Shown here: positions 4,121 through 52,433 of the stretch, piece after piece
Layout: each line of letters starts with the position of its first letter
How positions within the stretch are numbered: the stretch's first letter is position 1
NCBI GenBank assembly: GCA_048571215.1
Contig: CP182352.1
Coordinates: forward strand, 1,888,001-1,952,000
Reading direction: 5' to 3'
DNA length: 64,000 bases
Source of the DNA: Halarcobacter sp.
GTDB lineage: Bacteria; Campylobacterota; Campylobacteria; Campylobacterales; Arcobacteraceae
The notes under the pieces: generated by a model
Seen by the model: the letters and a program-made list of their open reading frames with translations, nothing else
The model's database searches: none
What the model was told of the DNA's origin: nothing
Made by a program: the position numbers and the translations under genes

Positions 4121-5335
4121 TTATCCTAAATTCATAGAAAATATAGGTAATAACATAGCAACAACAATAAAACCAATAATTGAACCAACAATCAACATAA
4201 AAATAGGCTCCATTAGCGATAACAATAGGTTTATTTTGTCCCTATTTGATTCATTGTAAAGTTTTGCTAGATTGTTTAATATCTCACTTAATCTACTTGT
4301 ATCTTCCCCAATTGCAATTGAATGAATAAAAGACTCATCTAGTTTATAAATTTTGTTTTGAAGTAATAAACTTGAAAGTTTTTTTCCCTCAACAACACTT
4401 TGTGAAGCATCCATAAAAACTTTTCTTATAACTGTGTTTTTTAAAATATTTGCACTTAAGTTTATAGCTTGAACTATAGGTACTCCCGATTTTATCAATA
4501 TTGAGTTCATATAAGAAAACCTTGATAATTCACTGTGCTCTATTAGTTTAGAGAAAAATGGAATTTTCAATAAAAACTTATCAAAAGCATATTTAAACTT
4601 AACACTTTTTTGTAAAGAAAAAACAAAAATAAATATAGCAGAGATTAAACCTGCAATCACAAACTGATAGTTGTTTGAAAAGAAATCTCCCAAGGCTATT
4701 ACTATTTTTGTACTTTGGGGTAACTCTTGGTCAAACTGGGTAAAGATAGAAGTGATTTTAGGAACAATAAAACTCAACATAAATCCAACCATAAAAAATG
4801 AAACAAAAAGTATAAATAGTGGGTATGCCATAGCAGAAGCAACTTGTTTTTTGATTCTATCTTGCTCTTTTAAAAAGATAGATAACTCCATCAATACAGA
4901 TTCTAACAAACCACCATTTTCACTAACCTTTATAGATTGTTTATAGAAACTTGGCAGGGCTAAAACTTTTTGAGACTCCAAAGCATCATAAAACCTTTTT
5001 CCCTCATCTAAGTACCCCTTTACAGTCTCAAAAAAAGTAAAAAGGGTTTTATTGTTTTTGTATCTTTGTTTTAGTAAATTTATAGAACTTATAAGTGTAA
5101 TTCCTGAGTTTAAATATATACTTAAATCTCTACTTATATATGAAAGGGTTGAGAGATCAAGTTTTTTTCTTCTTTTGAAACTTACTTTTCCAAAATCGAT
5201 AGAATCTTCTTTTAAACTAGTGTATAAAATCCCTTTGGCTTTTAATTTAAGCTTTGCATCTTCTACACTACTTGCTTCGATTTTTGATTTTATTTTTAGA
5301 CCACTTTTATCTAAACCACTATACTTATAAAGCAT
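4121..5335 (-). CDS. gspF: T2SS inner-membrane platform protein GspF
   Basis: GspF/PilC motifs LNSGITL, SENGGLL, AMAYP, LLSLMEP; 404 aa. Confidence 0.92.
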   Translation of the reverse strand: MLYKYSGLDKSGLKIKSKIEASSVEDAKLKLKAKGILYTSLKEDSIDFGKVSFKRRKKLDLSTLSYISRDLSIYLNSGITLISSINLLKQRYKNNKTLFTFFETVKGYLDEGKRFYDALESQKVLALPSFYKQSIKVSENGGLLESVLMELSIFLKEQDRIKKQVASAMAYPLFILFVSFFMVGFMLSFIVPKITSIFTQFDQELPQSTKIVIALGDFFSNNYQFVIAGLISAIFIFVFSLQKSVKFKYAFDKFLLKIPFFSKLIEHSELSRFSYMNSILIKSGVPIVQAINLSANILKNTVIRKVFMDASQSVVEGKKLSSLLLQNKIYKLDESFIHSIAIGEDTSRLSEILNNLAKLYNESNRDKINLLLSLMEPIFMLIVGSIIGFIVVAMLLPIFSMNLG

Positions 5336-5870
5336 CTTTTACCTCTATTTCCATTTTATCAAACTCATCTAAAATCTCATCAGTAGATTTATAAACCTCT
5401 ATATTATTTGAGATTGACTTTATTAGATATACTTTTTCATCTAATGTATCTAAAACAATATTTTTATGTTTTTTATCTTTATTTATTGTTAATTCAAAAA
5501 ATGGATTATAAGAGATATCATCTATTTTTACTTCTAAAAACTCCATAGGATTTAAGTCTCTACCATACTTATAAACCTTAGGAATTTCATAGAATAAATT
5601 TTGTATTTTTACACTATATTTTTCATTATTATCTATAAAAACATAACAAGGCAAATTCTCTTCTTCAACACATATAAAAGAGATTTGATCCTCATATTTA
5701 AACTTTTGTTCTAAAAACTCTTTTAGATTTTCTAATTTTACTTTATACTCTTTTTCTTTTTTAGGTTGAAAGGAAGAGATAGCTATAAAAGCTATAATAC
5801 CAACTAAGATTAAAACAACCATCATCTCTACTAGAGTAAAAGCGTTTTTCACTCCAATAGATTTTTTCAT
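5325..5870 (-). CDS. Minor pseudopilin (GspH-like)
   Basis: Prepilin motif NA|FTLVEMMVVL. Confidence 0.75.
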   Translation of the reverse strand: MKKSIGVKNAFTLVEMMVVLILVGIIAFIAISSFQPKKEKEYKVKLENLKEFLEQKFKYEDQISFICVEEENLPCYVFIDNNEKYSVKIQNLFYEIPKVYKYGRDLNPMEFLEVKIDDISYNPFFELTINKDKKHKNIVLDTLDEKVYLIKSISNNIEVYKSTDEILDEFDKMEIEVKDAL

Positions 5871-6245
5871 CTATTTATTACACTTTGAATAATAAATATC
5901 ATCCTCTGTACTCTCTTTTTTATCTGCCCCAAAAGAGATAAGTTCAAATGAATCTTCGTTTTGAACATATATAAAATCATTGCCCCATGAATCTTTTGGT
6001 AATTTTCCATCATCAAAATATTTTTTCTCAACTAAAATATTTAAGCCCTCTTCTGTAGTAGGATAGCTTGAATTATCTAATTTATAAAGTTTTAAAGCCT
6101 GACTTACACTTTTCATTTGAACACAAACAATCTTTGCTTTTGCCTCTTCACTCTTACCTGTCAAATTTGGTAAAACAAATGCAGCTAATAAACCTAAAAT
6201 AATAATTACAACCATCAATTCCATCAATGAAAACGCTTTTTTCAA
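5871..6245 (-). CDS. gspG: Major pseudopilin GspG
   Basis: KKA|FSLMELMVVIIILGLLA; ALKLYKLDN..YPT..EGL; PKDSWGNDF; SFGAD. Confidence 0.93.
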   Translation of the reverse strand: MKKAFSLMELMVVIIILGLLAAFVLPNLTGKSEEAKAKIVCVQMKSVSQALKLYKLDNSSYPTTEEGLNILVEKKYFDDGKLPKDSWGNDFIYVQNEDSFELISFGADKKESTEDDIYYSKCNK

Positions 6246-6315
6246 TTCAAATCCTTATAAAAAATAAAAAATATTATATCTAATTTTGATTATATAAAAG
6301 TTACAAAATAGGAAA

Positions 6316-6576
6316 TCACTCTGTATTTTCACTATCTGCTGAATTTTTAAATTTTTCTATTCTTTCTAAAAACTCATCTGACATCTCTTTTGATTTCAAT
6401 AAAAATTCCCTTGAAAAAGAGCATTTTTTTGTATCTGTTTCACTCTCTTTTTGGCACTGTAAAACCTTTTGATTTTCACTGCCATTTTTTTTTAAATTTG
6501 GCAAAATAAATGAAACAATCAAAATCAAAAAAATAATTAAAACCAACCACTCTCTAGTTGAATATGCTTTTTTCAA
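6316..6576 (-). CDS. Small divergent pseudopilin-like protein
   Basis: N-terminus aligns with GspG (KKAYSTREW..ILPNL vs KKAFSLMEL..VLPNL); has a Cys pair. Confidence 0.55.
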   Translation of the reverse strand: MKKAYSTREWLVLIIFLILIVSFILPNLKKNGSENQKVLQCQKESETDTKKCSFSREFLLKSKEMSDEFLERIEKFKNSADSENTE

Positions 6577-6627
6577 ACCAAAATCCTTTAGATAAATTTA
6601 TTAGAATTAAAATTAAAACTAATTTTT

Positions 6628-8535
6628 TTATTTCACAAAAAATCCTTCAATAGATTCTATAGAGATAATATTTGGAATACTCTTACTATCTAGTTCATTT
6701 TGAATTATACTATCACTTGATATAGCTTTATACTCTTGATTTACTGAATCATATTTCCAGATAACTTTTACATTTGGGTTATCTGTGAAAAACTGGTTTA
6801 TATCACTTATTGTTTGTGAACCTATCATATTCCATTGGTTCGGTGTGATTGTTATACTATCTGCTAATCCATCACCTAAGATGTTTACTGATGTATCTTG
6901 TGACACTTTTATCCAATACCCATATCCATCTTCTAAACTTGTTAGTGTATTTGAGTTTGAGTTTACATCCCAATCTTTCCATACTCCATTTTGCAAACCT
7001 TTTATTGTTTGAATATAGCTATTATTTAAACTTGAAATATCTATATTTGAGTTTAATTCCAAGGCTACTAGATTCCATCCTGAGATTAGATTTAAAGTAA
7101 ACACTCTTGAATTAGCATCATTTGCCTTTGTTCCATCTTGATACTCTTCCAAGTTTGTTTTCCCATCACTATCTAGGTCGCCATTTGCATCATTTACTAG
7201 TGGATTTAATCCATTTGCTATTTCGTAACTATCTGAGATAGTATCGTTATCATTATCTTGGTAAATTTCATCTGGAATTCCACCATTGTCTGTATCCAAT
7301 CTTGGATCAACAGCATTATCTGTATTTGCAATTTGCAATATTATTGTTTTGCCATTAGCTAGTCTTATTTCTGTATTTTGTCCTACATTCCCCGTAACAT
7401 TTATTTTTAAAGTATTAGCATCCATCCAATCTATTTCTGGTGTATTTGAACTATAGTAATATGAAGCATCAGTTCTAGAATCATTACAATCAATAGGAGG
7501 GATATATACCATGTAGGTGTTTCCACTGATTATATTAAATGTTTGTGAACTTTGATTTACAATATAATATGGGAAATCTAAAGTTTTTGTATAAAAACTC
7601 CACTCTCTTTCTTTTAATATATTATTTTCTTTATATATAACTTTTGCACTATACTTACTACCATAATCTAATCTTTTCATAGGAAATAGTGCAAAATCTT
7701 TATCTGTAAAATGATTATTTATATCACTACTCTCATCCATGATTGTTGTATTTGTAATCTCATTATTATTTTCATCAAAAAGTTGAAAAGATTCTAAAGA
7801 GATCGTTCCTGTAGTTAAAGGATTAAATTGAATACTAATTGGATTTCCAGTAACACTGCAGCTAGGAAGGGGATCGGGAGATTCTTCAAAGAATGCTGGT
7901 TGAAAATCTATTTGATTTGAATATGGCCAAGTTACAATATCTGGATTTAATAAAATATTTTTATTTTTTATTTGATCATACAAAGAAGCTTCTATTCTAA
8001 ATTTAGTTCTTTCACAAACACCTGTATAATAAGCATTATAACCTAAATAACTAAAATCACCATTGCAAAGAGAATTTATATAAGTATTTCCTAGATTATA
8101 TACATGGGTAAATAAATCTCCATATTCAGTATTTATTGATTGTGCAATCCCTATTTCATTATAAAAAAAATCTAAAAAACCTAGTCTATGGTAAATGGCA
8201 GTAAATAAACCATCAATTGAACTTTCATAATTAGAATATCCCACAGTCATATTTTCAGCTATATATGATTCATAATTAACTGCAAATGCTCTATCCCAAG
8301 GTGTTACACCAGTATATTCTGGATTTGTTGAAGTTTCATAATGACCTTCATATCCATAGGTATAAATATTTGTAGATACATAATTCGCATGATTTTGTGC
8401 AGATTGATTTAAAGTTGTATTTTGAGTATATTGTGTCATACCAACTTTTAAACGCTTATCATTCAAATACTCCAATGGTGTTTGTGCAAATAGTATATTT
8501 ACAAAAAAAATACCTATTAAAAACTTTTTTATCAT
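6628..8535 (-). CDS. Secreted CAP/SCP-domain protein with Asp-rich Ca-binding repeats and C-terminal tandem 'GWNL' domain
   Basis: Signal peptide; CAP motifs LNQSAQNHANY, GHYE, AEN, AIYHRLGFLD, EIGIA; DxDxDG repeats; LNLISGWNLVAL...GYWIKV. Confidence 0.8.
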   Translation of the reverse strand: MIKKFLIGIFFVNILFAQTPLEYLNDKRLKVGMTQYTQNTTLNQSAQNHANYVSTNIYTYGYEGHYETSTNPEYTGVTPWDRAFAVNYESYIAENMTVGYSNYESSIDGLFTAIYHRLGFLDFFYNEIGIAQSINTEYGDLFTHVYNLGNTYINSLCNGDFSYLGYNAYYTGVCERTKFRIEASLYDQIKNKNILLNPDIVTWPYSNQIDFQPAFFEESPDPLPSCSVTGNPISIQFNPLTTGTISLESFQLFDENNNEITNTTIMDESSDINNHFTDKDFALFPMKRLDYGSKYSAKVIYKENNILKEREWSFYTKTLDFPYYIVNQSSQTFNIISGNTYMVYIPPIDCNDSRTDASYYYSSNTPEIDWMDANTLKINVTGNVGQNTEIRLANGKTIILQIANTDNAVDPRLDTDNGGIPDEIYQDNDNDTISDSYEIANGLNPLVNDANGDLDSDGKTNLEEYQDGTKANDANSRVFTLNLISGWNLVALELNSNIDISSLNNSYIQTIKGLQNGVWKDWDVNSNSNTLTSLEDGYGYWIKVSQDTSVNILGDGLADSITITPNQWNMIGSQTISDINQFFTDNPNVKVIWKYDSVNQEYKAISSDSIIQNELDSKSIPNIISIESIEGFFVK

Positions 8536-47164: not shown

Positions 47165-47704
47165 TTATTTACTAGAAAGTACTAAATTTAATAAGAAATC
47201 ATCAAGTTCTTTATTTCTAGTACTTGATAATCTTGGTTGAATAAATAAAGTACCAAGAAATTTACAATAAATTAACAAAGTCATTTCTTCTCTTGTCTTT
47301 TCATCGGAACTAGGATTAAGTTTATCTTGAATATTTCGTAGTATTAAAATTCGTTCTTTATCAATCTTTTCCATATATGGTAAAACAAGTTCATTTCTAA
47401 GACCCCAGGCTCTAAATTCGATTTCGATATTTAAGTCTTTTGAATATATGGTATTATTTAGTAACTCTATTTGTTTTAAAGGATTATTTTCAAATTGTTT
47501 ACTTTTCTCAATAATATCCATTGTAAAAGTTTTGTACCAATACTCTAAAATCTCTTTAATAAATATTTTGTGGCTTTTAAAATGATGATAAAAAGAGCCT
47601 TTGGTAACTTTTAATTTTTTACAGAGTAAATCGATTTTTAATATATCAACACCATGTTTTGAAACTAATTTCAAAGATGAATCCATCCAATCTTCTTTTG
47701 TCAT
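47165..47704 (-). CDS. TetR/AcrR-family regulator
   Basis: HTH LCKKLKVTKGSFYHHF; AAAGGA RBS before MTKEDW. Confidence 0.92.
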   Translation of the reverse strand: MTKEDWMDSSLKLVSKHGVDILKIDLLCKKLKVTKGSFYHHFKSHKIFIKEILEYWYKTFTMDIIEKSKQFENNPLKQIELLNNTIYSKDLNIEIEFRAWGLRNELVLPYMEKIDKERILILRNIQDKLNPSSDEKTREEMTLLIYCKFLGTLFIQPRLSSTRNKELDDFLLNLVLSSK

Positions 47705-47720
47705 AATATTCCTTTTTGAT

Positions 47721-47750
47721 ATCATACCATACAGTATGGTATTGTGTCAA
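47721..47750 (-). promoter_or_regulatory. sigma70 promoter with overlapping palindromic operator (probable TetR autoregulation)
   Basis: TTGACA (47750-47745), 18-bp spacer, TATGAT (47726-47721); perfect ATACCATAC-A-GTATGGTAT at 47724-47742. Confidence 0.8.
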
Positions 47751-47848
47751 GAGAATATAAAATACTTATTCTATTGAATGTATGATTTCAATTTACAATT
47801 AATTGGTATCCTATCCACGGATTTTTGTAGAGTATTTTCTTTATTGTT

Positions 47849-47917
47849 AGGTAACGTTTAAAATGAGCTGATGAATTGCCCGCAGAGTAATTTATTGGCT
47901 CCTCTGTTTAGTTAGAA
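47849..47917 (-). repeat. attC site A (69 bp)
   Basis: Minus strand TTCTAAC TAAAC AGAGGAGC...GCTCATTT TAAAC GTTACCT. Confidence 0.88.
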
Positions 47918-48198
47918 GATACCGTACCATGTTGCTCCAATAAATAAAATAAATACCTGTATCAATGCAAGTAAACTTGATAAAGTAACTCCTAACCAAA
48001 TAACAATATTCTTACCGTATTTTTTGATATGAAAGTTTCCATAGATTATACTTAATGTTAAAAATATAATAACAATCAATGCCATCAATATAAAATTGAC
48101 TTGAATATTATCAATCCACTCACTTTTCCAATTAAAGAATATCACTCCGCTTAGAAAAGCCATTGTAAAAGGTATAAATTCTGAAATTTTTTTTCCAT
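47912..48198 (-). pseudogene. Cassette: near-identical copy of 48656..48946 with a 4-bp 5' deletion
   Basis: ATGG-A8-TTTCAG vs ATGG-AAAAACGAAAAA-TTTCAG; the remaining ORF is 47912..48163. Confidence 0.8.
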
Positions 48199-48204
48199 TT
48201 TCTC

Positions 48205-48273
48205 TTCTAACGTTTAAAGTGAGCCGATGAATTACCCGCAGAATAATTTATTAGCTCCTCAAATTTGTTATGT
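48205..48273 (-). repeat. attC site B (69 bp)
   Basis: ACATAAC AAATT TGAGGAGC...GCTCACTT TAAAC GTTAGAA. Confidence 0.9.
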
Positions 48274-48576
48274 ACCTGTTCCTAAGCCAAGTACACCAAT
48301 AAACGACCAAAACAGTATTCCAGCCACTGCTAAAATCTGACCATGCAATTTTTGATGATTACGAAATCCATAAATCATAGCCCCAAAGGAGAGCAGGAGA
48401 CCAAGAATCATTCCAAGTTTCGTAAACAATGGAAATGTGTAAAGCAATCCCATTGGTACACCAACTGTAGCTCCAAGAATAAACATGAAGCCAAGCCATA
48501 TATTTTCTTTAAAAACAAAAGAAACAATGCTCAATATGAGAAAGATGCTGACTAATGCAATAATTATTCTTTTGAT
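48268..48576 (-). CDS. Cassette: small multi-TM membrane protein (RBS points to an ATC codon at 48576)
   Basis: Track ORF 48268..48534 extends 14 codons in frame to AGGAG-N5-ATC; its stop lies in the R'' box. Confidence 0.65.
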   Translation of the reverse strand: MKRIIIALVSIFLILSIVSFVFKENIWLGFMFILGATVGVPMGLLYTFPLFTKLGMILGLLLSFGAMIYGFRNHQKLHGQILAVAGILFWSFIGVLGLGTGT

Positions 48577-48591
48577 GAATACTCCTGTGGT

Positions 48592-48661
48592 ACATAACGT
48601 TTTTCGTGAGCAATAATTTTCCCGCTAGGGTAAATTATTGGTCTCCTCGTATTTGTTAGAA
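48592..48661 (-). repeat. attC site C (70 bp)
   Basis: TTCTAAC AAATA CGAGGAGA CCAATAATTTACCC..GGGAAAATTATTG CTCACG AAAAAC GTTATGT. Confidence 0.9.
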
Positions 48662-48946
48662 GATGCCATTCCATGTTGCTCCAATAAATAAAATAAACAC
48701 CTGTATCAATGCAAGTAAACTTGATAACGTAACTCCTAACCAAATAACAATATTCTTACCATATTTTTTGATATGAAAGTTTCCATAGATTATACTTAAT
48801 GTTAAAAATATAATAACAATCAATGCCATCAACATAAAATTGACTTGAATATTATCAATCCACTCACTTTTCCAATTAAAGAATATCACTCCGCTTAGAA
48901 AAGCCATTGTCAAAGGTATGAATTCTGAAATTTTTCGTTTTTCCAT
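48656..48946 (-). CDS. Cassette: 96-aa three-TM hypothetical protein
   Basis: ATG lies just after GTTAGAA; stop TAA lies inside TTCTAAC. Confidence 0.8.
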   Translation of the reverse strand: MEKRKISEFIPLTMAFLSGVIFFNWKSEWIDNIQVNFMLMALIVIIFLTLSIIYGNFHIKKYGKNIVIWLGVTLSSLLALIQVFILFIGATWNGIF

Positions 48947-48952
48947 TTTCTC

Positions 48953-49618
48953 TTCTAACGTTTAAGTTGAGAAATAAGTTGCCCGTAGGGTAACTTATTT
49001 CCCTCCAATGAGACTGTGAAAGAACTCAGTCTCAATTTATATAAATATTCTACATAAAAACACCTAAAAATAATCATCCTAAAAATACTAAAATGTTATA
49101 ATATATTATATTTTAAAGGTGATTTATGGGTATATATAAACAAGGATTAGATAGAAATCAACAGTTACTTTTTCCACCAAGTTTGGATGAATTAATAGAT
49201 GAGAATAATATAACAAGAGCAATTGATTCTTATGTTGAGATATTAAATATTCATAAGCTAAATATAAAAACTAAAAAATCATTAATAAAAGATGGTCAAC
49301 CTGCATTTCATCCAAAACTACTATTAAAAATATATATTTATGGATATTTAATCTTGTGAAGCGAAGCGGTGCTTTAGCATCACTCTCTTTGAGAAAAAGT
49401 TATGTATAGCAATAAAAAATAAAGATTTAACTCAAATTACAAAAGATATAGAGGAATATATCTTAGTATTTGGACTTTATTTGGTTTATTTTTTACAAAA
49501 ATTTTTATATCTAAAAAATTTAAGAAAAAATGTCAGATATTCTGGAAGTTAATTTGGATTTTTACTGTAAATTTAGTTTATTTGGGACTAAATTCACAGT
49601 CTAAATGATTTGTTAGAG
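48953..49618 (-). repeat. attC site D, split by an IS (reconstructs to 69 bp: 48953-49010 plus 49608-49618)
   Basis: The rejoined site CTCTAAC AAATC ATTGGAGG GAAATAAGTT..AACTTATTTC TCAACT TAAAC GTTAGAA closely parallels attC F. Confidence 0.88.
49010..49603 (+). mobile_element. Internally deleted IS1182-family element inserted in attC D
   Basis: IR AGACTGTGAA (49011-49020) / TTCACAGTCT (49593-49602); AAT(G) duplicated on both sides; transposase N-terminus ..DRNQQLLFPPSLDELI..GQPAFHPKLLLKIYIYGY (49126..49359); probable C-terminal remnant 49406-49552. Confidence 0.85.
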
Positions 49619-49635
49619 GATTTTAGCTAGTACAA

Positions 49636-50106
49636 TTAATAATCAATGAAATCTGGAAAAGCAAATTGACTAATTTTCCACTCATTATTCTCTTGTTCAA
49701 GAAATATTTTAAAATAATTTCTTTGACGATTGTCAATCTTTGCTTTCATTTTCCCATAAGCAACAATGTTACCTTTATTAATGTTAGAAATATTTTCTGG
49801 ATAAAAAGCACAACTATAAATCTCAATTCCTTCGTAAAATTTGCTAAATTCATTTTTATATAATTCAAGGTGTGGTAATAATATTTCTTTAACAAAAGGC
49901 TTTTTTAGTGTAACAAGTTGTTTCAGTGATTTTATATCATTTTTTCTTATTGCAATTTCGAATTTTGTTACGATAATTTGCGTATTTTTTGTTGGTATTT
50001 TAACAAAATAGAAATATCCAAGGATCAAAAGTAAAGTAGAAAGAAAAATAAAAATTGCAGATACTTTTAATACCAGTTTTTTAATTGTACTTTCTTTTGA
50101 GTTCAT
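49636..50106 (-). CDS. Cassette: single-TM protein, possibly NTF2-like fold
   Basis: True start is probably MNSKES, just after GTTAGAG (the track's first 24 aa read through attC E); ends LEQENNEWKI. Confidence 0.75.
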   Translation of the reverse strand: MNSKESTIKKLVLKVSAIFIFLSTLLLILGYFYFVKIPTKNTQIIVTKFEIAIRKNDIKSLKQLVTLKKPFVKEILLPHLELYKNEFSKFYEGIEIYSCAFYPENISNINKGNIVAYGKMKAKIDNRQRNYFKIFLEQENNEWKISQFAFPDFIDY

Positions 50107-50114
50107 TTTTCTGC

Positions 50115-50186
50115 CTCTAACGTTTGTCATCACTGGTTTATGTGAAGCGCAGCGGAACACAAATCCAGTGCATGACATTGTTATGA
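50115..50186 (-). repeat. attC site E (72 bp, different sequence family)
   Basis: TCATAAC AATGT CATGCACTGGATTTGTGTTCCGCTGCGCTTCACATAAACCAGTGATG ACAAAC GTTAGAG. Confidence 0.9.
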
Positions 50187-50549
50187 ATCCTTTTTATGTT
50201 CAACGTATTCAACTATAGATCCATCTGGATGTTGTATTCGCATATTCTTACCTGTTGGAACTTTTTTAGGTTTTTCTAAAATGGGTATTCCATTGTCTAA
50301 AAAATAATTATGAAAATCATCTAATGAATCAACAAGGAAAGTTGTTTTTGTTGATTTAAATTTTTCCAAATCTTTTTCTTCACCAGCTAATAACAGGATA
50401 GAAGAAATCTGGACTAATTCTATATTCATTTCTTTGTATATAAATCTAAGAGAACAAGTTTTCTTAAAAATATTTTCATAGAATTTGATTGTTTTCTCTA
50501 ATTTTGAAGGATGCAAAAATATTCTTGTAAGTATTTCTTTGATTTGCAT
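50181..50549 (-). CDS. Cassette: VOC/glyoxalase-family protein
   Basis: FYENIF; FLVDSLDD; PKKVPTGKNMRIQHPDGSIVEYVEH. Confidence 0.85.
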   Translation of the reverse strand: MQIKEILTRIFLHPSKLEKTIKFYENIFKKTCSLRFIYKEMNIELVQISSILLLAGEEKDLEKFKSTKTTFLVDSLDDFHNYFLDNGIPILEKPKKVPTGKNMRIQHPDGSIVEYVEHKKDS

Positions 50550-50559
50550 TTATTTCTCC

Positions 50560-50594
50560 TCATAACTATTTATTCAACGAACATTATATATAAA
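50560..50594 (-). other. Candidate attI-like entry site 2 with TATAAT
   Basis: TTTATATATAATGTTCGTTGAATAAATA-GTTATGA; core complements this cassette's TCATAAC; no attC palindrome. Confidence 0.65.
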
Positions 50595-50827
50595 ATAGTC
50601 TGATATTATCAAATAAACAGACATAAAAAATATTTGTTTATTTGATAAAAATATTTCAAAATGCAATAATTTGATTCTTTTTTTACCAAAAGCATCAAAA
50701 TCTTTAAAATATAGATGAGCATTTAAAAATATTTTTGGCGTTATTTGAACAAAATGTCAGTTAATCGTAGGAAAAAAGTGTTAAATGTACATTATGCGGT
50801 TTATTTTCAAACCTTACATGTAAAAGT

Positions 50828-50989
50828 TTAGAGTTTATAGTTTCTTTCCCAACCAGAACGTCCAATTATAAAAGCTGTTGCTAAAGATGCATACTCTTCT
50901 TTAGATAACGAGTTGATATAATTTTTTATCTCATTTGATGACACTTGGAATTTTTGTATATTTTTAAAAATATTTTCTATTGGTTTCAT
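50828..50989 (-). CDS. 53-aa ORF or gene fragment (MKPIENIF...ATAFIIGRSGWERNYKL)
   Basis: Hand translation; ATGA overlap with the upstream stop; faint resemblance to DUF3775-type L..L..EE...L.A..IGR. Confidence 0.4.
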   Translation of the reverse strand: MKPIENIFKNIQKFQVSSNEIKNYINSLSKEEYASLATAFIIGRSGWERNYKL

Positions 50990-51534
50990 TTTTTTTCATT
51001 GTTATGTTTTGGCTTTGACGCTTCAAGGTAAAGTATTTGCTGAAACATCGTGTGAAACAAATGGCGCACCTCCGTTACAAAAAGTTTTGACAGCTTATCT
51101 TTCGATTTATGCGCTTTCCATATTTTATTGAAATTTTCAATAACGAGGCGTTGCTGCTCTACTGAAACCGAGTTTAGCGGCCTACTTTCTTGGCGCAAAA
51201 GAAGATTTTTTAACTCAACATCTATTACTCGATATTTTTCTGCATAGCAAAAATATGGAGTTTCGTATGATTCAACAAGAGAACTACATAAATCATCTAT
51301 TTTTTTAGCTACGCTTAACGTCTGCTCCTGTGTTTTTGTATCGAAAGCTGAAATAGTAGCTTCAGGTGTTGGTAATGCCTTCGCTAACGTTGATACAGAA
51401 TCAATAAATTTTGATACTGATATCACAATAATCCCAACGACAACCACAAAACCGACAGCCTTCAAGCTGAGTAGCTTGCCTAATATTTCCTTATGCGCTA
51501 CGACTGAGCCTTCATTTTTTACGTCATCTGACAT
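50986..51534 (-). CDS. Cassette: single-TM hypothetical protein, visibly more GC-rich than host
   Basis: AAGGA RBS before MSDDVK, after GTTATGT; matching ACATAAC at 51007-51001, but the rest of the attC is missing. Confidence 0.75.
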   Translation of the reverse strand: MSDDVKNEGSVVAHKEILGKLLSLKAVGFVVVVGIIVISVSKFIDSVSTLAKALPTPEATISAFDTKTQEQTLSVAKKIDDLCSSLVESYETPYFCYAEKYRVIDVELKNLLLRQESRPLNSVSVEQQRLVIENFNKIWKAHKSKDKLSKLFVTEVRHLFHTMFQQILYLEASKPKHNNEKK

Positions 51535-51549
51535 TGCGGATCCTTGTAA

Positions 51550-51618
51550 ACATAACGTTTGAGTTGAGAAATATTTGAGCCGCAGGGTCAAATATTTCTT
51601 TCCAATGATTTGTTATAT
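51550..51618 (-). repeat. attC site F (69 bp)
   Basis: ATATAAC AAATC ATTGGAAAGAAATATTTGACCCTGCGGCTCAAATATTTCTCAACT CAAAC GTTATGT. Confidence 0.9.
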
Positions 51619-52100
51619 ATTTTTGATTGCATTATAACAATACTTCTTGATAGGAAGATACCACTTAGTGAACCATATAAAAAACTAATAGCAATAATAA
51701 ACCCTAACTCATGTATAATAGATAATTCCCTTGCAAGTGCAACTCCAACAAAATATTTAATAAAGAATATAACTAGTATAAGAACCATAGGCATCCAACT
51801 ACCTGGAATATAAAAAACATCTTCAGATTCATTATATTTAATATTTTTAGGAAACGACAATTTTAATCCTATAAGTAAAAATATAAATCCGCCAATAAAC
51901 CATAGTCCTACTGGTGTTATCATTGTTCCAAAAGCAGAAAAAACACCAAATAATGATAGTAGGATCATAGCAATAGGTAAAGTAAATATTCTTTTTAATT
52001 TTACTTCTCTATCTTTTGTTTGTGTATATCCTAAAAAAACCAAACCTATAAACAATATAAAAACCCATATGGGTGTATGCTGAATTATTTCAAGAATCAA
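51588..52100 (-). CDS. Cassette: membrane protein, DUF6622-like
   Basis: HTPIWVFILF..LG..Q..DR; IPGSWMPMVLIL.IF..KY; ORF ends inside attC F. Confidence 0.75.
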   Translation of the reverse strand: MILEIIQHTPIWVFILFIGLVFLGYTQTKDREVKLKRIFTLPIAMILLSLFGVFSAFGTMITPVGLWFIGGFIFLLIGLKLSFPKNIKYNESEDVFYIPGSWMPMVLILVIFFIKYFVGVALARELSIIHELGFIIAISFLYGSLSGIFLSRSIVIMQSKIYNKSLERNI

Positions 52101-52115
52101 TCTTATTCCTTTTAT

Positions 52116-52150
52116 ATATAACTATTTATTAAACACACATTATATATATA
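52116..52150 (-). other. Candidate attI-like entry site 1 with TATAAT
   Basis: TATATATATAATGTGTGTTTAATAAATA-GTTATAT; core complements ATATAAC of attC F. Confidence 0.65.
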
Positions 52151-52433
52151 ATAACCTAAAAATCAATAAATATCATACAATATAAATGTCGTATATTAAA
52201 ATAAATACAAAGCCTTTAAATAAAGTGTTCATCAGTATTTTACTCTAAAAAATACTGCAATACATAATATTTTTTAAATATATTTTAACTTTCTAATATA
52301 GTTTTTATGTACGTTTTATATCGATATTTAGATGATAATAGTACATTTTGTATGTATATTAAGATAATATCGTAATAACATACATTATGTTATATTTATT
52401 AAGAAGTCAATTATTAATCCAATTTATAACTAA

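Follow-up and report, generated by a model that had tools for sequence, protein, structure and literature searches.

Resistance cassettes in which one and the same gene is followed by different attC sites are known from class 1 integrons, and both the incongruence between gene and attC and rearrangement at R'' are already known. Cleavage of the top strand within R'' has been measured for some attC sites, at AAC (Nivina et al. 2016, PMC5027507), and integrase recombination at R'' has been proposed as the origin of the delta-attI cassettes (PMC12901181, citing Partridge 2000, 2009). Leon and Roy (2009, as cited in PMC3053210 and PMC7923331) put forward that there is no relation between a gene and its attC and that the two can be joined by a mobile element at R''. 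Insertion sequences are drawn to these sites as well: the IS1111-attC elements home to attC (Tetu and Holmes 2008, as cited in PMC3001079), and IS1272, a member of the IS1182 family, is described as targeting stems, with deletions and without duplication (PMC4923244). The type of attC has been used to infer the origin of cassettes (PMC8352920). In open-access full texts we found no polarised attC swap with a measured rate (variant tables in supplements may list cases of the same gene with different attC sites) and no description of an IS1182 element that targets attC.

Here we describe a cassette gene, X, that occurs twice in one array of a Halarcobacter sp. genome with two different attC bodies, and we are highly confident that the attC body has really been swapped.

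The array and its two copies of gene X

The window, by which we mean the whole stretch of 64,000 nucleotides that was analysed, is G000:C1:1888001-1952000, G000 being a 3.61-Mb genome in a single contig. Positions 47849-52330 hold a cassette array on the minus strand with single co-oriented genes and attI-like heads at 52120 and 50564, without an adjoining integrase; the only integron integrase of the genome is encoded at 895245-896189, about 1 Mb from the array (398 bits on TIGR02249, cut-off 265). In window positions the features are:

47855-47917, minus strand: attC A, X's own R'' TTCTAAC (47917-47911) and a body of the common AB family
47912-48198, minus strand: gene X copy A, whose frame is shifted by a 4-bp deletion behind the ATG, with an 83-aa frame from the next ATG; cassette start at 48210
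48211-48273, minus strand: attC B, of the AB family, belonging to gene Y
48268-48576, minus strand: gene Y, a small hydrophobic protein, also found in runs X5 and X6
48598-48661, minus strand: attC C, X's R'' and a C-family body; judged from relatives, probably the ancestral pairing
48656-48946, minus strand: gene X copy C, intact, a hydrophobic protein of 96 aa; cassette start at 48958
48959-49009, minus strand: right part (body) of attC D, severed from its R'' by an insertion sequence
49010-49603, plus strand: IS1182-family remnant of 594 bp, 8 nt behind the AAC of R'', with ATT flanking both sides and a transposase fragment at 49126-49359
49604-49618, minus strand: left part of attC D, with R'' CTCTAAC, spacer and triplet, behind gene 50106-49636
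50121-50186, minus strand: attC E, behind a glyoxalase-like gene (50549-50181)
50564-50640, minus strand: attI-like site with a sigma-70-type promoter match, a copy of the site beside the remote integrase gene
51556-51618, minus strand: attC F, behind a DUF6622 gene (52100-51588)
52120-52330, minus strand: attI-like site and promoter region, the head of the array, 81% identical to the site next to the integrase gene over 214 bp

The frame of gene Y opens with ATC (48576-48574) behind AGGAG, and its first common start codon is a TTG at 48534; either a rare start codon is used or an ATG has been lost. Gene 51534-50986 has no attC behind it (50986-50828) and is followed by a short ORF and the second attI-like head. 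The attI-like motif has 17 fuzzy matches in G000, some perhaps by chance, and the attI-like heads part at G|TT in 17 loci. Copies of attI plus promoter head arrays remote from the single integrase gene, and their relatives are alike over about 200 bp and split at G|TT. The attC sites of G000 are spread over about 12 separate places. Strong inverted repeats mark a cassette of about 180 bp that lacks a gene; it lies twice in the integrase array (896494-896676 and 898385-898567), where it is the first cassette behind attI, and is also present in G022 (L079, L082), and another short cassette occurs three times in G012 (L036). In the arrays of G000, attC sites or IS remnants are often cut short by members of a family of repeated non-coding elements, which are several hundred bases long and partly nested (1711900-1711600, 1706650-1706350, 1471860-1472700 and 2826200-2828400).

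In the attC sites the boxes R'' (RYYYAAC) and R' (GTTRRRY) enclose an imperfect inverted repeat of about 55-141 bp. The z-scores for folding are -3 to -6 for attC C, E and F and only about -0.8 for A and B; attC A folds weakly and is probably decaying. In both copies of X, R'' is complementary to the 5' end of its own cassette (TTCTAAC/GTTAGAA). This holds widely, with 4 of 4 bases matching the own cassette end in 144 of 193 cassettes but the end of the next cassette in only 7 of 193, and the matched ends therefore seem to go with the gene part, which would make the body the exchangeable part. X sits behind three different attC sites in G000, hence cassettes change neighbours at G|TT, and the two X cassettes are best read as integron gene cassettes that are presumably mobile at this point.

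A first-pass annotation had noted a near-identical twin cassette gene with a 4-bp deletion at the 5' end of one copy, and attC sites that diverge right behind TTCTAAC. Comparison of both copies bears out both observations. The two share a leader, G|TTAGAAGAGAAAATG, and run together through the TTCTAAC box with 97% identity, differing at 9 bases in 8 codons (5 synonymous, 3 not) and by the deletion behind the start codon of copy A, and they separate directly behind the box. Two objections that the annotation had raised against itself, that attC A and attC C might be each other's closest relatives and that the doublet might be misassembled, do not hold. Aligned, the bodies of A and C are 72% identical, those of A and B 84% and those of B and C 74%. 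Contigs from run X3, which is possibly the sample of the window itself, cover 47500-47940, 47985-48166, 48156-48758 and 48881-49044 without a single difference or gap. Among the parts covered are the A8 run and the joint of copy C with attC C, and the contig over 48156-48758 has the deletion of copy A; misassembly or homopolymer error can thus be ruled out. These contigs cover the stretch in parts, and the one over the joint of copy A with attC A has 29 letters on the gene side, below the rule of 31 letters.

Relatives of gene X and of its attC sites

The attC model was built from 19 sites of G000. A strict structure-only scan gave 5 hits and was replaced by profile scans, which found 369 complete sites in 52 genomes; the search covered 25 genomes of the genus, 44 of a second genus, 28 of a third and a further 10, and the surroundings were fetched for most hits. 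In this collection, 76 sites were counted to the AB family. The sites most similar to attC A are 95% (G012, G002) and 93% identical (position 2746485 of G000 and others), and attC B takes its place behind 67 of the 369 sites, A itself counted. That attC A is much closer to attC B, as had been claimed, is consequently true only relative to C, given the closer site at 2746485 of the same genome. A and B are simply two members of one common attC family, with B no special donor.

The proposal that attC A was overwritten by gene conversion from its neighbour attC B has some basis in the adjacency of the two sites, their 84% identity and one non-consensus T that they share in the stem. Run X5 also has an A-type X (1 difference in 224) followed by a shortened AB-type body that can be placed on B, at depth 6, over 38 letters and under a permissive setting with a repeat warning. 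The large number of sites that precede B among the relatives of A speaks against conversion, as does the fact that A keeps consensus bases where B is derived, and the 97% identity of the genes of A and C stands against only 84% between attC A and attC B. Conversion from B is for these reasons highly improbable.

Gene X itself is rare, being present in 2 of 184 genomes of the family and having 4 representatives among 1.84 billion proteins. Searching the genome contigs with a single X protein confirmed no further copy; a search with an alignment of X gave one real hit, L018, and a metagenome hit, L017, proved false. X is absent from the viral contigs and plasmids that were searched. Its function drew nothing over the cut-off in Pfam or NCBIfam and only unnamed clusters in the Atlas, and Rfam gave one hit at chance level. 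The search for further copies and their attC sites that the first-pass annotation had suggested was carried out, and it brought a third copy in G000, which has no attC, and copies in G016, run X5 and run X7; runs X6 and X7 cover only a small share of the stretch.

These copies give the change a direction. X in G016 sides with A at 9 of 9 diagnostic sites between A and C, and the tree groups the copies as ((A, third copy), G016) with 95% support. At the same nine sites the outgroup L018 agrees with C at 5, with A at 2 and with neither at 2. The remnant of attC behind the G016 copy matches C at 14 and A at 7 of its first 18 bases; compared over 26 bases it resembles a third family, Q, more than C, and in any case it is not of the AB type. 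In run X7, a diverged X (17 differences in 220) aligns through the entire attC C. Since the G016 copy is on the side of A but has a non-AB remnant, and the X7 copy runs through attC C, we infer that X was ancestrally paired with a C-like site and that the lineage of A gained an AB body.

Another possibility is that the X cassette arose on two separate occasions and received a different attC on each. Identical bodies are indeed found behind unrelated genes in different genomes, for instance 8 copies of one F body and a site behind another gene in G165 that is identical to attC C, which means that bodies get copied onto genes, and a 69% homologue of X lies in a gammaproteobacterial contig without attC. 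However, both copies of X have the cassette leader and R'' in common, the lineage of A includes the G016 copy with its non-AB remnant, and no non-cassette source of X is found in G000 or in 183 other genomes of the family. We consider a double origin very unlikely. The annotation had offered attC swapping, conversion or independent pairing as explanations. The relatives of X, with their C-like site, and the body of another family in the lineage of A, together with similar changes in other cassettes, support the first; conversion is not borne out, B being far down among the relatives of A and without the consensus bases that A keeps; and independent pairing is disfavoured by the 5' leader and R'' box common to both copies.

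The crossover at R'' and its possible agents

The position of the crossover can be narrowed. All 13 C-family sites read A at +5 behind AAC, whereas 70 of 76 AB sites and also attC A read C, which places the crossover before +5, within TAAC+0-4, an interval that includes the top-strand cut AA|C; the argument depends on one or two bases, and the spacer differs in 4 of the 13 concordant families described below. The third copy of X (G000 1708080-1707782, 98% identical to A) is fused via TCTAACAA at R'' into the 5' end of a chromosomal NlpC/P60-like gene, which has matches in 6 of 25 genomes. The intact gene in G018 reads GTCTAAC at the joint, a perfect RYYYAAC in the orientation that fits a top-strand cut. 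Such a joint is expected of a top-strand cut against a chromosomal site, and equally of a deletion between 8-base repeats. The cassette upstream of the third copy has an R'' with 12 bases in common with the same chromosomal site. A long attC precedes the third copy and may have arrived together with X; the gene upstream has no homologue among the loci fetched.

To see how often attC differs between copies of a cassette, a family was taken to comprise cassettes whose upstream DNA shows an identity of 85% or more across 150 nt or more before R'', both sites being complete. In the 52 genomes, 4 of 17 such families have attC identities of 33, 37, 64 and 72% and the other 13, not all of them independent (two belong to a single common block, and another is a cassette without a gene), have 82-100%; random pairs of attC reach 80% in 9.6% of 3000 draws. 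The three discordant pairs other than X have the 5' end and R'' in common. An exchange between members of one attC family would go unseen in this count, and its rules exclude broken or IS-split pairs, e.g. G006/G014 (also a change of family), G016/G000 at 632 kb, and two copies of X, the third one and that of G016. Crossovers in the middle of the hairpin are scarce, with 2 clear chimeras, judged by eye, among 246 short sites, of which 9 were flagged as discordant by pattern and 34 were unclassified on one or both arms. In a histogram of breakpoints, stop codons in R'' and decay act as confounders, and we do not count it as support. As far as the compared sequences can tell, the exchange of attC bodies between existing cassettes is recurrent in the family.

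The explanation that we tentatively prefer for copy A is that the integron integrase exchanged the bodies by recombination on the top strand. The integrase would recombine two attC sites on their top strands with the cut AA|C in R'' rather than the usual G|TT, so that both ends of the gene (TTAGAA...TTCTAA) would stay with it and nothing but the body, between C and G, would be exchanged. The hybrid would remain a complete cassette, which normal bottom-strand recombination could then relocate, in this case to a position two places behind the older copy. A top-strand exchange of this kind would explain the crossover interval, the retained R'', the joint of the third copy and the scarcity of chimeras within the hairpin. 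In this array the top strand is the lagging-strand template, and the folding of attC C is nearly equal on the two strands (-13.0 and -12.6 kcal/mol).

There are weighty points against it. Top-strand recombination is reported to run several orders of magnitude below the bottom-strand rate (PMC5027507), and to be at background level both for the excision of attI1 x attC (PMC12614218) and for insertion into the genome (bioRxiv 2022.09.11.507474), and here both sites must use the rare strand. Donors of the AB family favour the bottom strand by a mean of 2.9 kcal/mol. Inverted cassettes, which are top-strand products, are absent among 208 adjacent pairs, and a strand bias is lacking, with the top strand on the lagging template in 6 of the 12 arrays of G000. 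As R'' and the stop codon frequently coincide in part, selection on the gene alone shifts the visible breakpoints toward AAC. The enzyme cannot be named from the sequence, as the 7-8 shared bases, TAACAAA, fit a plain deletion between short repeats equally well.

Such an integrase-independent deletion, by slippage or by illegitimate joining in transformation, would have removed one body and the next gene between two TAACAAA repeats. Every junction falls in shared bases, small deletions in the left arm of attC recur 1-5 bases behind TAAC (G006 L043, G018 L078 and run X5), the two internal chimeras exist, and integrase-free deletions of 60-400-bp cassettes have been ascribed to slippage (PMC5371416). 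The two commonest families, however, share a longer word in the loop, ACCCTGCGG, and chimeras in the loop are nevertheless scarce against 4 clean swaps among 17 families; selection against unpaired sites may be part of the reason. The sites in the 400-bp slippage reported in the same paper were 83% alike, whereas the C and AB bodies are 72-77% alike. We regard slippage as a serious candidate, although an unlikely one.

The element in attC D brings in another agent. Its assignment to IS1182 comes from full-length relatives (354 and 331 bits on NF033551, cut-off 270), the window itself holding a fragment only, and inverted terminal ends are present. The IS1111-attC group was considered for it and rejected, as that group needs an IS110/IS1111-type transposase and the best family here is IS1182. 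Its DNA is matched in 26 of 184 genomes, in part by a subgroup that has a different target. Related copies in G182, G196 and G111 (L141, L142, L147, L148, L123) precede AGGTTGT-like words and not attC. The subgroup at +8 from the AAC of R'' is also found at 631397-632415, 959839-960354 and other places in G000, and in L107 and L134-L140. Two copies in G000 have reciprocal triplets (AGA/AGT and AGT/AGA). Five pairs of empty and filled sites were compared, of which 3 agree exactly with a 3-bp duplication, 1 has one mismatch and 1 is different, and these favour a real target duplication of 3 bp.

An attC-targeting IS1182 could have inserted behind the R'' of X, recombination between two such elements or an adjacent deletion could have joined another body, and the element could then have been lost cleanly. 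The remnant adjoins copy C, and 23 of 23 left ends that pass the pattern lie at TAAC+8 (many of the loci were chosen for containing attC). The flanking triplets agree in 2 of 16 two-ended copies, about the 1.6 expected by chance; we do not take this as proof of swaps by the element and rely on pairs that can be compared directly. Behind one gene, and beyond the same IS junction, stands an AB body in G000 and an F body in G002. In G020 and G121, draft assemblies in which repeats are possibly misjoined, one copy of a gene is followed by the gene's own intact body and the other copy by the element and a different body, and in G020 an intact 130-nt body stands behind two different genes with a difference at +4. 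IS1182 does join genes to foreign attC bodies, but for X it fits less well. The element cuts at +6 to +8 and should leave the spacer of X, whereas attC A has the donor type at +5 and +6; the family-typical bases at +4 and +5 are on the body side in G117/G159 and G006/G014/G159, which also speaks against this route, and a clean loss was not observed in the data examined. The IS1182 route is accordingly improbable for X.

Separately, L093 of G020 contains a direct repeat of 1572 bp (583-2154 and 5308-6878, 99.7% identical) that reaches from TAAC behind two different genes to G|TT and comprises a 130-nt attC body, a gene that we take to be IS110-like and a short attC-like end; a third copy lies in L134 behind an IS1182 end.

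A group IIC-attC intron that joined X to a new attC and was then spliced out, the route of Leon and Roy, would be attractive in one respect: these introns insert in R'', inside the crossover interval, and leave no trace (PMC7923331). Against it, group II introns are without a match in G000 and stay below the family cut-off in all 25 genomes of the genus that were searched, and the three reverse transcriptase loci examined are not beside attC. We find this route hardly credible for X. The reverse transcriptases in G021 and G023 (L095, L096, L103) have a small upstream gene, and these loci are presumably diversity-generating retroelements.

Consequences and comparison with known systems

The event is a re-pairing of existing cassettes and not the creation of a cassette, and it does not account for the match of R'' to the 5' end of its own cassette. 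Its bearing on how cassettes are made, which the first-pass annotation had stressed, is thus only indirect, although the question of their origin is narrowed when the matched ends belong to the gene part and the body is replaceable. Cassettes are treated as fixed units of gene plus attC; if about a quarter of shared cassettes have changed their attC, the inference of origin from attC is weakened, and if such swaps are general, a foreign gene could acquire the attC type of its host. The window holds X, attC C, Y and attC B in this very order, a concrete substrate for a top-strand exchange.

It is a doubtful but conceivable generalisation that attC bodies, reaching from the C of AAC as far as the G of GTT, move as modules in their own right, delimited by the two possible cuts of the integrase, that top-strand recombination trades bodies and joins R'' to chromosomal TAAC sites, and that IS1182 is a second shuffler. 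If so, many of the chromosomal TAAC targets would be at stop codons, and the reciprocal product would be an ordinary gene furnished with an attC body. Identical bodies would spread over unrelated genes, and one half of the genesis of cassettes would be supplied.

The closest known systems share parts of this picture. Like the sedentary chromosomal integrons and CALINs, the array has single co-oriented genes, RYYYAAC...GTTRRRY hairpins, movement at G|TT and an integrase in the genome; unlike them it has attI-like heads without an adjacent integrase, and gene and attC body do not always travel together. The top-strand system of Nivina et al. (2016) likewise has its cut in the AAC of R'', but in the experiments described there it concerns attI x attC and inverted cassettes, whereas here we would have an exchange between attC and attC with natural products. 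As in the delta-attI and truncated-attC cassettes of class 1 and class 2 integrons, attC is replaced at R'' and the gene keeps its R''; those cassettes gain a piece of attI, whereas X gained the whole body of an AB-family attC and became a full cassette, which sets it apart from the delta-attI cassettes.

The model of Leon and Roy also has gene and attC unrelated, with a mobile element at R'' that can join them, but here there is no such intron, the element is an IS1182, and existing cassettes are re-paired. The element in attC D resembles IS1111-attC and IS1272 in being an insertion sequence that homes to attC sites or hairpins; it differs from both in its fixed spot 8 nt behind R'', from IS1272 in its apparent 3-bp duplication, which the latter lacks, and from IS1111 in its transposase.
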